Part shown: piece after piece, positions 3,631 to 49,716 of the stretch | Numbering within the stretch: position 1 is the first letter of the stretch | Layout: the number at the start of each line of letters is the position of its first letter | Assembly: GCA_964594415.1 (NCBI GenBank) | Contig: CAZQLQ010000006.1 | Location: 1-54,140 of the forward strand | Length of the DNA: 54,140 bases | From: an uncultured Candidatus Saccharibacteria bacterium | Lineage (GTDB): Bacteria; Patescibacteriota; CPR2; UBA1875; CAIMLA01 | Direction of reading: 5' to 3' | Translations under genes and position numbers: made by a program | The notes under the pieces: generated by a model | The model's input: the letters and a program-made list of their open reading frames with translations, nothing else | What the model was told of the DNA's origin: nothing | The model's database searches: none

Positions 3631-4395
3631 CTATTTATTACTAATCTTCTTTGCAATCCTATCTATCCCGCTATTTTCAAACGCACGGAGAACCTCTAAA
3701 GGAATAGCGAAGATAACCGTATTTGACTGATCAGAAGAGAGATCGTTTAAAGTATTAAGCGTTCTAAGATGTAGAGCACCATCGGCTTCCGATAAGGTTT
3801 TTGCGGCTTTGGCCAAATTGGTGGAAGCAATCACTTCACCTTCTGCTTTTGTGATGACCGCTCTCTTTTCTCTTTCTGCTTCTGCTTGTTTTGCTATAAC
3901 TCTCTTCATATCTTCAGGCAAAACGACATCTTTCAAGTCAACATTATCAACCTTGATACCCCAAGGATCAGTAAGTTTATCTACAATAGTTTTTATCTGA
4001 TTTGAAACACTATCTCTTTCGGAAAGAAGGGTATCTAAGTCAACCGAGCCTACAATGTTTCTCATCGTTGTTTGTGCTAACTGAGAAATCGCATAGTAAA
4101 AGTTTTCTACTTCCAAAACAGCTTTTGAGACATCATCTACTTTATAGTAAATAACCGCGTTTATACCTACCGAGATATTATCCTTAGTAATTGCTTCCTG
4201 GTTTGGAACGTCAACAGCTTTTACCCTTATGTCTACTTTCGTCATAGATTCAATAATGGGGATGATCAATCTCCACCCCGGTTCAACTATTTTCACAAAT
4301 CTTCCAAGTCTAAACTTCACCCCTCGTTGGTATTGATTTACCTGCCTGATGCTGACCAAGATTATTCCCAAGACAATTCCCAAAAAATACCACAT
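3631..4395 (-). CDS. SPFH/band 7 (stomatin-like) protein
   Basis: N-terminal TM; QEAITKDN, AQTTMRNIVG, AKQAEAERE motifs. Confidence 0.92.
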   Translation of the reverse strand: MWYFLGIVLGIILVSIRQVNQYQRGVKFRLGRFVKIVEPGWRLIIPIIESMTKVDIRVKAVDVPNQEAITKDNISVGINAVIYYKVDDVSKAVLEVENFYYAISQLAQTTMRNIVGSVDLDTLLSERDSVSNQIKTIVDKLTDPWGIKVDNVDLKDVVLPEDMKRVIAKQAEAEREKRAVITKAEGEVIASTNLAKAAKTLSEADGALHLRTLNTLNDLSSDQSNTVIFAIPLEVLRAFENSGIDRIAKKISNK

Positions 4396-8197: not shown

Positions 8198-8233
8198 ATA
8201 TTAACACAAAAAGAAGCATTTCTGCTTCCTTTG
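8198..8233 (-). promoter_or_regulatory. Terminator plus extended -10 promoter module, copy 1
   Basis: Hairpin gaagc-agaaat-gcttc plus T-run, then TG-T-TAATAT, 6 nt, ATG(8191). Confidence 0.7.
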
Positions 8234-8263
8234 TTTGTTCCAACCAGGTAATCTTTGGTTAAT

Positions 8264-8980: not shown

Positions 8981-9014
8981 ATAATAACACAAAAAGAGGT
9001 ATTTCCACCTCTTT
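8981..9014 (-). promoter_or_regulatory. Terminator plus extended -10 promoter module, copy 2
   Basis: gaggt-ggaaat-acctc plus T-run, TG-T-TATTAT, 6 nt, ATG(8974). Confidence 0.7.
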
Positions 9015-9032
9015 ATTCTAGTGGTGTAATAA

Positions 9033-9211: not shown

Positions 9212-9246
9212 AGAATAACACAAAAAGAGGCATTTCTGCCTCTTTT
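9212..9246 (-). promoter_or_regulatory. Terminator plus extended -10 promoter module, copy 3
   Basis: gaggc-agaaat-gcctc plus T-run, TG-T-TATTCT, 8 nt, ATG(9203). Confidence 0.65.
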
Positions 9247-9272
9247 CTTTCCAACAATTTTTTTGGTCCAAA

Positions 9273-9391: not shown

Positions 9392-9401
9392 AGTTGTTTG
9401 A

Positions 9402-9497
9402 TGGTGGACCCTACAGGACTCGAACCTGCCACCTCCTCGGTGCAAACGAGGCGCTCCCCGCCCGTACCGAACGGTACGTTCGGGCGGGTACCAGATG
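9402..9497 (-). pseudogene. 3' part of the outer (split) tRNA-Ala(TGC): D-loop with 32-nt insert, anticodon arm, T arm, acceptor 3' strand and CCA
   Basis: Reverse complement catctggta[32 nt]gagcgcctcgtttgcaccgaggaggtggcaggttcgagtcctgtagggtccacca; lacks nt 1-12. Confidence 0.9.
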
Positions 9498-9501
9498 GAC
9501 T

Positions 9502-9631
9502 TAATAAAATAGAGTTTGCTGAATAATTGGTGGACCTGACAGGACTCGAACCTGCTACCTCCTCGGTGCAAACGAGGCGCTCTACCAGGTGAGCTACAGG
9601 CCCGCGTTATTCAGCAAACTCTATTTTATTA
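9502..9631. repeat. Perfect 25-bp inverted repeat (9502-9526 / 9607-9631) enclosing tRNA-Ala
   Basis: taataaaatagagtttgctgaataa and its exact reverse complement. Confidence 0.95.
9528..9603 (-). tRNA. tRNA-Ala(TGC), intact inner copy
   Basis: 76-nt cloverleaf, G3:U70, anticodon loop TT-TGC-AC, encoded CCA. Confidence 0.97.
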
Positions 9632-9635
9632 TCAG

Positions 9636-9878
9636 TTATTCTTCGATAATTTTGTTTATAAACCTTCTACCAGCCGCCGATTTAAAGTACTTTTCTCTAA
9701 TCAGCGCCTCGTTCAAAGTTTCAACTTTTTCATAGTATTTAATTTTTAATTTACCCTTCATTTTAGAAGTAGTTTTTGTGTGACCTCCGTTATGCTCCTG
9801 CAACCTTCTTTTGAGATTGTTTGTGTATCCTTTATATAAGGTGCCGATTTCGTCTTCTAAGATATATACGTAATACAT
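9636..9878 (-). CDS. Small stand-alone GIY-YIG endonuclease (YhbQ/UPF0213-like)
   Basis: YYVYIL...LYKGYT-NL-RRL-EHN...YYE...EA-IREKYFKS; conserved Y/R/H/E residues present. Confidence 0.92.
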   Translation of the reverse strand: MYYVYILEDEIGTLYKGYTNNLKRRLQEHNGGHTKTTSKMKGKLKIKYYEKVETLNEALIREKYFKSAAGRRFINKIIEE

Positions 9879-9901
9879 GCTTGATATTTTACCACAACCT
9901 T

Positions 9902-9962
9902 AGGCGCTCCCCGCCCGTACCGAACGGTACGTTCGGGCGGGTACCAGATGAGCTAAGGGCCC
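9902..9962 (-). pseudogene. 5' part of the outer (split) tRNA-Ala: acceptor 5' strand and D arm with 32-nt insert
   Basis: gggcccttagctcatctggta[32 nt]gagcgcct; acceptor gggccct pairs perfectly with agggtcc of the 9402 piece; 9902-9950 is identical to 9449-9497. Confidence 0.9.
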
Positions 9963-10169
9963 TCATCGAAATCCGCTGTCAAGCTTCTTAAATAGCTTTC
10001 ACTATTTATTTCGCTTTTACGCGATTTCTCCTCTTCCCCTAAAAATCTACGATTTTTGGGGACCCCACAGAAACGAACTAAATTTCAAAAAATTCTTAAA
10101 ACCTTTTTGTACTTTCGCAACGCTTCCTTTTTCGCAAAAATTTATAATTTTTTGCGAGATGACTTATGT

Positions 10170-10198
10170 ATTTTACTCTTTTAAAAGGATTTTTTCAA
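10170..10198 (-). promoter_or_regulatory. Sigma70 promoter upstream of the split tRNA-Ala/GIY-YIG unit
   Basis: TTGAAA-17-TAAAAT. Confidence 0.6.
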
Positions 10199-10204
10199 GC
10201 TAGA

Positions 10205-10453
10205 TTACATTGCCCCAAGAGAACCGAGTAATCCGTCATAGATGTAATCAGCAACGCCAATCATCACCAGAATAGAGACAATAATCATTAGTGTGCCGAG
10301 AATTCTATAAAAAGTATAGGTCCCTGCCGGGCCAAGGTATTCCTCCGCAAATCCTATGCGAAAAGTATTATCAACAATTTGATGCGTATACGCAACAAAG
10401 CTTGTTCCGAGTGCTATACCAATAATCCCAAAGATAAACTTTCCTATTGTCAT
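10205..10453 (-). CDS. Conserved small 2-TM protein (AEEYLGPAGTY motif)
   Basis: 82 aa, SD aggagg; family recognised as common in CPR genomes (from memory). Confidence 0.75.
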   Translation of the reverse strand: MTIGKFIFGIIGIALGTSFVAYTHQIVDNTFRIGFAEEYLGPAGTYTFYRILGTLMIIVSILVMIGVADYIYDGLLGSLGAM

Positions 10454-10578
10454 ACCCCTCCTGTTGAATTAGTTTACCCGTCGAGAAAATTTCTAATTTT
10501 CTCGATAAAGGAGGAAACGCGATAAGTTGCAGTAATTTTATTATTTAAAATTATGAAACCTGCCAGCAGTTTCCGACG

Positions 10579-10655
10579 TGGTGGGCGATCGAGGACTTGA
10601 ACCTCGGACCTCGTCATTATCAGTGACGCGCTCTAACCACCTGAGCTAATCGCCC
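10579..10655 (-). tRNA. tRNA-Ile(GAT)
   Basis: 77-nt cloverleaf, anticodon arm cgtca-CTGATAA-tgacg, encoded CCA. Confidence 0.97.
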
Positions 10656-10680
10656 GTGAAATCAATTTTCAACACATAAT

Positions 10681-10709
10681 ATTTTACCAAATAAAGGGCA
10701 ATATTTCAA
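10681..10709 (-). promoter_or_regulatory. Sigma70 promoter of tRNA-Ile
   Basis: TTGAAA-17-TAAAAT about 25 nt upstream of the tRNA. Confidence 0.65.
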
Positions 10710-10765
10710 CAAGTAAGTGAGATGTACAAAAAGTCCATCGAAAGTAATATAAGGTTTAAGATGGA

Positions 10766-11230
10766 GCAGTTCTCACATTCGTTCGAACAATAAACCCCTT
10801 GAAAAACTGTTCGTCCCGAGGACCGACTATTTTAAAAAGAAGTTCAGTTTTTCTTGAACTTTGCATCACTTTCTTTCAAGAGAAAGTGAGAAAAGAAATT
10901 AGATTCTTCGACTTCGCTCAGAATGACACTATTTTGTCATCCTGAGGGAGCGGAGCGATTCGAAGGATCTAGAGATCCCTCGACAGGCTCTCCGACGGAG
11001 TCCGACACGAACTCATCGGAGTCGTCGGACGGGATGACATAGGGAAGGAGTGGATCCCTGGAATGACGCCAGGGATGACCACAGCACTATAAAAAAGTGC
11101 TGGGCGAAGCAGAGAAATAGGTAGATCCCCGCGTGCGCGAGGATGACATAGGGAAGGAGTGGATCCCTGGAATGACGCCAGGGATGACAAAAAACATTAT
11201 AAAAGTAGTTCTCTGATTCGCCTCGAACAT
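10766..11230. repeat. Second mosaic cluster of REP-like palindromes
   Basis: Same units as 1-470; direct repeat of about 40 nt (catagggaaggagtggatccctggaatgacgccagggatgac) at ~11038 and ~11146; 10795-10839 matches 54087-54131 with one mismatch. Confidence 0.9.
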
Positions 11231-11264
11231 GATTGGCATTGTAAAGATGCGGGGGTAAACAATT

Positions 11265-11293
11265 AAAAAACTCCACACAAGGCGGAGTTTTTT
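11265..11293 (-). terminator. Bidirectional-type terminator just downstream of the 16S processing stem
   Basis: aaaaaactcc-acacaaggc-ggagtttttt. Confidence 0.7.
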
Positions 11294-11297
11294 CGGC

Positions 11298-12938
<1,641 letters not shown>

Positions 12939-49340: not shown

Positions 49341-49418
49341 ACTTCTCCGAACAATTCTACAAATTAATATAAATTAAAACCAAAAACCTATAATCCATTA
49401 TTTACATAGCAATATTTC

Positions 49419-49608
49419 TGATCGGGGCGGCGGGATTTGAACCCACGAGCCAATAGTCCCTTGTCTAGGACATAAAATAATATCTTGGTCGGGGATGCGA
49501 GACTCGAACTCACGACCTCAGCGTCCCGAACGCTGCGCGCTACCAACTGCGCTAATCCCCGATTTTAAATTATGTCCTAGACGCGCTACCGAGCTGCGCT
49601 ACGCCCCG
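49419..49608 (-). pseudogene. Outer tRNA-Pro-like gene whose anticodon arm is replaced by a 13-bp stem enclosing an intact tRNA-Pro
   Basis: Acceptor cggggcg/cgccccg plus A73, D arm gcgc/gcgc, T arm gtggg-TTCAAAT-cccgc; inverted repeat 49463-49475/49570-49582; ends in TCA, not CCA. Confidence 0.85.
49486..49561 (-). tRNA. tRNA-Pro(CGG), intact inner copy
   Basis: 76-nt cloverleaf, anticodon arm cagcg-TTCGGGA-cgctg, encoded CCA. Confidence 0.97.
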
Positions 49609-49716
49609 TAGCTTCATATTTTACTCCTCTAGCTTAATTTTTTGAAGTACTGAAATTCACGTTATGTGACAAATTCAGAAAACTAACCTATAATCTTAAG
49701 CTATAAGGGAGGATAT

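Follow-up and report, generated by a model that had tools for sequence, protein, structure and literature searches.

We analysed a stretch of 54,140 nucleotides (the window; contig CAZQLQ010000006.1 of an uncultured Candidatus Saccharibacteria bacterium) that carries one tRNA gene inside another. At positions 49608..49419 of the minus strand, direct reading of the sequence reveals two halves of a tRNA-Pro gene enclosing a complete tRNA-Pro(CGG), an arrangement that we refer to as a nest. All parts lie on the same strand. The outer 5′ part (49608..49582) covers tRNA-Pro positions 1-26/27 and reads CGGGGCG-TA-GCGC-AGCTCGGTA-GCGC-G, that is, the 5′ strand of the acceptor stem followed by the D arm. 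It leads into the left arm of a perfect 13-bp inverted repeat (49582..49570, GTCTAGGACATAA), from which a leader of 8 nt (49569..49562, TTTAAAAT) extends to the inner tRNA (49561..49486). A trailer of 10 nt (49485..49476, AGATATTATT), with which the leader pairs in part, connects the inner tRNA to the right arm of the repeat (49475..49463, TTATGTCCTAGAC). An extra stretch of 16 nt (49462..49447, AAGGGACTATTGGCTC) occupies the place of the variable loop, which normally comprises about 5 nt, so that the enlarged variable region reported in the original prediction is real. The outer T arm (49446..49430, GTGGG-TTCAAAT-CCCGC) and the outer 3′ end (49429..49419) follow, the latter consisting of CGCCCCG, A73 and then TCA in place of CCA. 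Altogether the insert measures 114 bp, of which 76 nt are tRNA.

The inner gene has an encoded CCA, G37, A73 and a C1:G72 pair. It is called by ARAGORN and matches the Rfam tRNA family with 65.2 bits (E = 3.5e-14); both programs and the direct reading thus agree with the earlier claim of a complete tRNA-Pro(CGG) within another tRNA-Pro. The features then ascribed to the outer gene were also recovered: its acceptor strands pair at seven of seven positions, C1:G72 and A73 are present, and it has a 4-bp D stem and a 5-bp T stem with a TTCAAAT loop. Neither ARAGORN, intron mode included, nor Rfam calls the outer gene, and both report the inner one only. The seven-nucleotide anticodon loop of the outer gene is missing, and the repeat and inner tRNA stand where its anticodon arm would be. 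The sequence of the repeat arm occurs nowhere else in the window. Beyond its perfect 13 bp, the inverted repeat extends imperfectly to arms of 22 nt that are 86% complementary, reach the inner tRNA and leave 76 nt between them. The pairing and shape of the nest are beyond chance: the nested shape of the 190-nt RNA has a folding energy of −83.3 kcal/mol (z = −4.4). In the minimum-energy folds of this RNA and of the outer gene alone, the extra stretch pairs with the D-loop region. Its final ~5 nt resemble a normal variable loop (AGGTC at the orthologous locus L121 introduced below) and the other ~11-12 nt have no assigned origin.

A promoter-like site of the resident tRNA-Pro precedes the nest (49646..49618, TTCAAA-17-TAAAAT, 9/12 matches); its −10 box lies 9 nt upstream of where the outer gene starts. 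The TAAAAT box had been noted before and taken to indicate a single transcript. This remains plausible, as the site is also found in L121, ahead of an intact tRNA-Pro. The whole unit of promoter and nest is flanked by a direct repeat of 25 nt (49371-49395 and 49671-49695), the copies of which lie 300 bp apart and are 76% identical, with 11 nt exact (GATTATAGGTT, minus strand). This repeat may be due to chance in AT-rich DNA or may represent a duplicated −10-like box. Two known classes of tRNA interruption were tried and ruled out. At the junctions, the helix is a continuous duplex of 13 bp and not a bulge-helix-bulge motif, and an Rfam scan of positions 49350-49700 for a group I intron gave only tRNA and matches at chance level.

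Comparison with other tRNA-Pro genes indicates which of the two genes was there first. The outer 5′ 26-mer is found in ordinary tRNA-Pro genes of at least 120 genomes from several phyla in a contig scan and is thus half of a normal tRNA-Pro; its matches in Nitrospirota, Chloroflexota, Gemmatimonadota and others included no nests. The sole close relative on record, and the only informative orthologous locus, is L121, whose Ddl is 74% identical to that of the window; no tRNA was found near ddl in more distant relatives (52% identity; L125-L127). L121 has a single intact tRNA-Pro(CGG) upstream of and divergent from ddl, with an alignable promoter. This gene agrees with the outer halves at 49 of 52 positions (26/27 in the 5′ and 23/25 in the 3′ part) and with the inner gene at 42 of 51 (22/26 and 20/25, respectively). 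As the outer halves are nearer to the L121 orthologue, they represent the disrupted resident gene and the inner gene an incoming tRNA-Pro of a different lineage. Inner and outer gene are only about 79% alike, which argues against the inner gene being a fresh local duplicate. We consider it likely that the outer gene is the disrupted resident and the inner gene the working copy. Compared with L121, the outer gene has lost its anticodon loop, has gained 11-12 nt in the variable region and carries TCA where both L121 and the inner gene have CCA. Its apparent anticodon stem reads TCTAG/CTAGA, as opposed to CATCG/CGATG in L121. Of the claim that a perfect 13-bp stem sits at the anticodon-stem position, the perfect repeat stands, whereas the stem, judging from this comparison, may have come with the inserted repeat rather than from the old gene.

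Some further observations concern the same kind of site. In L121 (9849-9888, minus strand), a 9-nt copy of the tRNA-Pro 5′ end (CGGGGTGTA) lies where the outer gene of the window begins and is followed after 31 nt by the intact tRNA; an older event at this locus may have left it behind. In two Gemmatimonadota loci (L055 and L067), tRNA-Pro genes break directly after the anticodon loop (CCTGCTTCGGGAGC) and are probably targets of integrated elements.

The helix formed by the leader and trailer of the inner tRNA is exceptional. In the window tRNA-Pro, this duplex reaches −27.0 kcal/mol compared with a median of −8.8 (sd 6.9) for 136 tRNAs of the related loci. The seven strongest duplexes of this set (−27 to −38 kcal/mol) belong to nested or partly duplicated genes. 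Six of them are stronger than that of the window tRNA-Pro: five, from four loci, are nested or partly duplicated and the sixth is the Ala gene of L128. The tRNA-Pro nest of L180 is absent from these seven. A leader-trailer repeat of the kind found in the tRNA-Pro nest also occurs at the tRNA-Ala of the window, at the tRNA-Ala of L128 and at the tRNA-Arg of L183. The repeat arms of different nests have unrelated sequences, and between window and L128 the orthologous Ala repeats have diverged by two substitutions and an indel but are both perfectly complementary. Unrelated arms, together with Ala repeats that have diverged and yet remained complementary, speak for a requirement for pairing rather than for a terminal repeat bound by a transposase or another protein.

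The tRNA-Pro nest, which combines an intact tRNA with an interrupted copy of the same isotype at one locus, has a sister structure in the same window at 9962..9402 (minus strand), inside the spacer of 16S, tRNA-Ile and tRNA-Ala. There, the outer 5′ part (9962..9902) carries a GC hairpin of 32 nt (9941..9910) in its D loop, followed by an open reading frame (ORF) for a GIY-YIG protein of 80 aa (9878..9636; Pfam GIY-YIG, 2e-14). A perfect 25-bp inverted repeat (9631..9607 and 9526..9502) encloses a complete inner tRNA-Ala (9603..9528), and the outer 3′ part (9497..9402) carries the same hairpin again (9488..9457). A direct repeat of ~49 bp at this locus includes the 32-nt GC hairpin of the D loop. 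The second ‘tRNA-Ala’ that ARAGORN calls at 9402-9477 is the hairpin-bearing remnant and scores below the Rfam gathering threshold.

Further nests were found among 80 metagenomic loci (L128-L207) that were retrieved via alignment of homologues of the GIY-YIG nuclease. L128 has a nested tRNA-Ala with a 27-bp repeat. L180 has a tRNA-Pro(UGG) at 3780-3854 inside an outer tRNA-Pro (3635..3908) that is broken just past the anticodon loop and shares the acceptor stem CGGGGCG/CGCCCCG with the outer gene of the window. Downstream of the 16S gene of L180 (2923-3908), a tRNA-Ile with a GIY-YIG/hairpin element, a nested tRNA-Phe and this nested tRNA-Pro(UGG) stand in a row. L150 and L152, from two different samples, have identical nests of tRNA-Pro(CGG). 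In L183 (2567-2775), the D loop of an outer tRNA-Arg harbours a hairpin-like repeat (CCTGCCCGCC.../...GGCAGGCGGGG) with a complete tRNA-Arg(CCG) inside it, and the T loop of this outer gene has another hairpin beside GGTTC; in its arrangement, this locus is a connection between ‘empty’ hairpins and the repeats that carry a tRNA. Nests thus span the isotypes Ala, Pro, Phe and Arg in independent assemblies. Their outer copies range from intact (window tRNA-Pro; L180 tRNA-Pro with acceptor, T arm and CCA) through truncated (L128, without positions 1-9) to copies with mutations at conserved sites of the T loop or in the acceptor stem (L146, L179, L190, L150), the pattern expected for scars of different ages. 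ORF-less, GC-rich inserts of ~100-130 nt with a common motif CGCGAGGCGG were seen in L150 (950-1280), L159 (3400-3565) and L180 (3672-3765), where they separate an intact tRNA from a residual piece of its 3′ part or lie within an outer tRNA. A search of Rfam with the ORF-less inserts of L150, L159, L180 and L128 returned no known RNA family.

The element family to which the tRNA-Ala structure belongs was delimited in this analysis, in which 69 loci with a GIY-YIG gene could be assessed. A tRNA on the same strand starts between −30 and +45 nt from the stop codon of the nuclease gene in 55 of these 69 loci; the ORF overlaps the tRNA in 45/69, and in 37/69 the stop codon is the UAG formed by U8-A9-G10 of the tRNA. 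With the stop codon inside the tRNA, cleavage by RNase P would strip the nuclease mRNA of its stop. A conserved GC hairpin, CCCGCCCG...CGGGCGGG, stands beside 56 of the 69 GIY-YIG genes and was not found in any of 120 tRNA-Pro loci from outside the candidate phyla radiation (CPR). It mostly interrupts a second copy, partial or complete, of the same tRNA. Its commonest site is the D loop between positions 21 and 22 (GGTA-hairpin-GAGC), and rarer sites are the T loop between positions 56 and 57 and positions 9-14. Relative to the tRNA, the hairpin is seen in either orientation, as would suit a DNA element. The 57 distinct hairpins of L128-L211 and the window have constant outer 8 bp and an inner stem that is variable yet paired, and an asymmetric inner bulge has AAC on one side and GTT on the other. 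In a common layout (e.g. L164:2928-3301 and L195:2917-3313), tRNA positions 1-21, the GC hairpin, positions 22-~31, the 80-aa GIY-YIG ORF and a complete tRNA follow each other, often with an ORF/tRNA overlap of 10 nt. A mirror layout (L197:2927-3300, L178:2871-3310 and L182:2860-3351) starts with the complete tRNA and continues with the ORF and a hairpin-interrupted tRNA copy; here the hairpin is in the T loop between positions 56 and 57 (L197, L178) or, in L182, in the D loop of a second copy that is complete.

The nuclease is a bare GIY-YIG domain of 80 aa, the closest solved structures being UPF0213 proteins and then SLX1. NCBIfam contains no model for it, and a profile search gave 5,909 cluster representatives at E <= 1e-10. 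Nucleases that are 75-79% identical occur at different isotypes. The isotypes hit are Ala, Ile, Thr, Val, Phe, Lys, Arg and Asp, and the D arms are similar in the loci read. Closely related nucleases at different isotypes with similar D arms suggest that the target is likely a generic feature of tRNAs. A second GIY-YIG family (91 aa) was seen in L208 (1697-2114) with another hairpin (TCCGACGC...GCGTCGGA) that interrupts a partial tRNA-Ile copy at about the junction of positions 13 and 14; in this family, the ORF likewise overlaps into the tRNA.

The host is bacterial, as the window contains a bacterial 16S rRNA gene and the peptidoglycan genes ddl and murF. The GC content of the window is ~37%, and the best named relatives of its Ddl belong to the ‘Patescibacteria group’. 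The neighbours of the tRNA-Pro nest are genes of a NUDIX protein, a Sua5/YrdC-family protein, Ddl and a Mur ligase. An exact-protein look-up with the NUDIX and GIY-YIG proteins of the window gave no match. In the region 9400-12860, tRNA-Ile and tRNA-Ala come after the 16S gene, and no 23S gene was found within 9.4 kb downstream. An ORF for a small membrane protein of 82 aa (10453..10205) lies between tRNA-Ile and tRNA-Ala and has the same place in L128 and L208. Beyond the tRNA-Ala, a terminator-like hairpin with an identical tail AAAGAGGnnGAAATnCCTCTTTTTGTGTTA occurs three times on the minus strand (~8215-8240, ~9005-9030 and ~9230-9255), and a similar motif lies behind the tRNA-Ala of L208.

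Given these observations, the nest is probably a self-compensating insertion into a tRNA gene that brought its own replacement copy, spread by nuclease-triggered repair, with the repeat serving as a clamp for folding and processing. In this scenario, the promoterless insert of 114 bp would have replaced the anticodon arm of the resident tRNA-Pro and destroyed the resident gene. From the resident promoter, a single RNA would now be made that spans both outer halves and the inner tRNA between them. The helix of leader and trailer (13 perfect bp, ~19/22 overall and stacked on the inner acceptor stem) would shield the inner tRNA from mispairing with the similar outer halves and could offer RNase III a double-stranded point of attack. 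A normal tRNA-Pro would then be released by RNase P and 3′ trimming, leaving the outer pieces as by-products without an anticodon. As to its origin, a break in the resident gene could have been repaired from a cassette donor in a homing-like manner, with the outer halves acting as homology arms. The nest would then be one member of a wider population of small elements that hit tRNA loops and carry a whole or partial replacement tRNA, many of these elements being accompanied by the 80-aa GIY-YIG nuclease and the conserved GC hairpin. This reading agrees in essence with the earlier suggestion that the nest is a nuclease-less relative of the element at tRNA-Ala, a kinship that is one of architecture and not of sequence.

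That a nuclease of the GIY-YIG type drove the insertion is a tentative proposal. The tRNA-Pro insert contains no GIY-YIG gene, the only one in the window being 39.6 kb away (9878..9636), and no conserved hairpin, both window matches of which are at tRNA-Ala. The link to the GIY-YIG family consequently depends on shared architecture and co-occurrence, not on shared sequence, and the co-occurrence of nests and nuclease is biased because the comparison loci were mostly picked for their GIY-YIG gene. Several other points weigh against the scenario as a whole. A second copy of the Pro cassette in another context was not found. The flanks of the L121 tRNA have no similarity to the inner or outer flanks beyond that of shuffles; since the flanks of window and L121 do not align, the insertion cannot be dated. 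Pairing of leader and trailer is able to hinder RNase P in model bacteria, and cleavage by RNase III as well as the fate of the outer pieces are steps that we infer. Finally, the intact tRNA copy beside many GIY-YIG genes keeps the D-loop sequence of the interrupted copy. A simple homing logic for the hairpin elements, according to which a disrupted site is immune, was rejected as a full account for this reason.

The origin of the nest could also be explained without such a nuclease. A transposon similar to miniature inverted-repeat transposable elements, in which the repeats are terminal repeats for a transposase acting in trans and the tRNA is cargo that reached tRNA-Pro as an incidental or preferred target, would agree with short inverted repeats around a small cargo and with the GC hairpin of the sister element, which resembles an inserted DNA palindrome in occurring in both orientations. 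However, a search around the Pro and Ala repeats revealed no target-site duplication, no transposase gene lies next to the nests read, and repeat arms that are unrelated between nests, with an arm unique to its locus within the window, are not what terminal repeats would look like. The host gene of every nest is a tRNA gene of matching isotype, an observation more in keeping with homology-dependent repair than with transposition, and we regard a transposon of this kind as unlikely. Somewhat less probable still is a local rearrangement in which no mobile element took part, such as a template switch at the palindrome of the anticodon arm that introduced a copy of a paralogous tRNA-Pro into the resident gene. 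The arms of tRNAs are natural palindromes, and TCTAG/CTAGA at the outer ends of the repeat could be the old anticodon stem. Against this reading stand the recurrence of the architecture in four isotypes and unrelated assemblies, a repeat that is perfect although inner and outer gene are only ~79% alike, and the strong association with a dedicated nuclease and hairpin family. An assembly chimera joining two tRNA-Pro genes appears extremely improbable. Although the contig is of the metagenome type and many contigs bearing the related nuclease are short, a sign of difficult assembly, exact runs shared by the inner and outer gene are only 8-9 nt long, which is insufficient for k-mer joins. Such an error would not be expected to yield a symmetrical nest with a perfect repeat, nor the identical nests of L150 and L152 in two different samples.

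A different view on the outer gene was put forward in the original prediction, namely that its two pieces stay paired via the 13-bp helix and the acceptor stem as an anticodon-less mimic of tRNA-Pro and act as a decoy or regulator for ProRS, EF-Tu or anticodon nucleases. In favour of this, the outer gene has kept its acceptor stem, D arm and T arm together with C1:G72 and A73, folds well on its own (−51.9 kcal/mol, z = −6.2) and stands behind the resident promoter, and the outer tRNA-Pro of L180 is likewise intact. A recent insertion, however, would equally leave the outer gene intact, and compensatory evolution could not be demonstrated. The outer gene does not encode CCA, and G35 and G36, which are identity elements of tRNA-Pro in E. 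coli, are gone with the anticodon. Furthermore, the outer copies of other nests are decayed or truncated and L121 retains only 9 nt of an upstream copy. As the outer gene is the resident orthologue stripped of its anticodon loop and encoded CCA, a functional two-piece decoy found no support and is very unlikely, in contrast to the self-compensating insertion that we favour.

Our search of the full-text literature, in which subscription journals are mostly outside coverage, found no description, for these bacteria, of tRNA-in-tRNA nests or of a fusion between GIY-YIG and tRNA genes, in line with the earlier statement that no bacterial equivalent has been described. Instead, it yielded SegB of phage T4 in a tRNA cluster, ‘fractured genes’, disrupted tRNAs of archaea and insertions in rRNA genes of CPR bacteria. 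The T4 gene segB is a free-standing homing endonuclease gene of the GIY-YIG type in a tRNA gene cluster (PMC2330249). As in the family described here, a GIY-YIG gene thus lies among tRNA genes, and it would spread by a double-strand break through which the nuclease gene and flanking tRNA sequence are copied. SegB differs in being a larger, site-specific phage enzyme that is not known to interrupt a tRNA gene, to duplicate part of it or to nest one tRNA within another. The CPR protein, in turn, is a bare domain of 80 aa nearest to UPF0213/SLX1, and the tRNA-Pro nest has no nuclease gene at all. Scans of viral contigs with the 3′ half of the inner tRNA and with the hairpin gave 0 matches and hence no sign of a phage vector. 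In the ‘fractured genes’ (PMC2677866), a homing endonuclease gene has broken up host genes, which split inteins make whole again. Common to both cases is a selfish nuclease element that breaks an essential gene and a built-in device that compensates; in the fractured genes this is protein trans-splicing, whereas the nest has a spare copy of the RNA gene.

The nest also shares features with more familiar inhabitants of tRNA genes, from each of which it differs. Prophages, integrative and conjugative elements and genomic islands insert at tRNA genes and bring along a copy of the tRNA segment that they displace. Like these, the nest targets a tRNA gene, restores its function by a carried sequence and leaves a displaced fragment of the old gene. 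Unlike them, it spans 114 bp and not kilobases, carries a whole tRNA and has neither an integrase gene among the neighbours of tRNA-Pro nor direct repeats of the att type, such as a repeat of the tRNA 3′ part. Moreover, integrative elements use the 3′ end, whereas the nest hit the anticodon arm and the sister elements hit D and T loops. Archaea have tRNA introns with bulge-helix-bulge motifs as well as split or permuted tRNAs, and some of the archaeal introns are mobile. In these, too, foreign sequence bracketed by a helix lies at or near the anticodon loop. The nest, however, is found in a bacterial host (16S, ddl, murF), its 13-bp duplex is plain and without bulges, and the outer halves, if joined, would lack an anticodon. 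Group I introns occur in the anticodon loops of bacterial tRNAs, sometimes together with a homing endonuclease, and thus share the anticodon region of a bacterial tRNA gene as insertion site. They contain a ribozyme, which the insert of 114 nt does not: apart from its 76 nt of tRNA, nothing else was recognized by Rfam. Finally, RNase III processing stems bracket the rRNAs in bacterial rRNA operons and resemble the nest in forming a long leader-trailer helix around a stable RNA in a longer transcript. In contrast to rRNA operons, such stems are not normal for the tRNAs of these loci (median −8.8 kcal/mol), and cleavage of the nest is putative.

The nest is apparently the tip of a large, undescribed family of elements. 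For annotation, the inner gene should be recorded as tRNA-Pro(CGG) and the outer halves as a disrupted gene. If the favoured reading holds, nests are natural examples of a tRNA released from within another structured RNA, and the minimal nuclease of 80 aa would have a defined and directly testable target, a D-arm sequence common to many tRNAs. It is conceivable, although we hold this broader view with less than even confidence, that Patescibacteria harbour a selfish ‘tRNA replacement’ system in which palindrome-tipped elements with a minimal SLX1/UPF0213-like GIY-YIG nuclease break tRNA loops and spread by carrying their own whole or partial tRNA and a helix clamp. If this is true, the system would in effect be a gene drive acting on tRNA genes and, besides self-splicing introns and inteins, a third solution to the damage that an insertion causes. 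It would also account for odd or duplicated tRNA calls in CPR genomes and for assembly breaks at such regions, and the tRNA genes of these ultrasmall bacteria would be a battlefield for tiny mobile elements that compensate for the damage they do.

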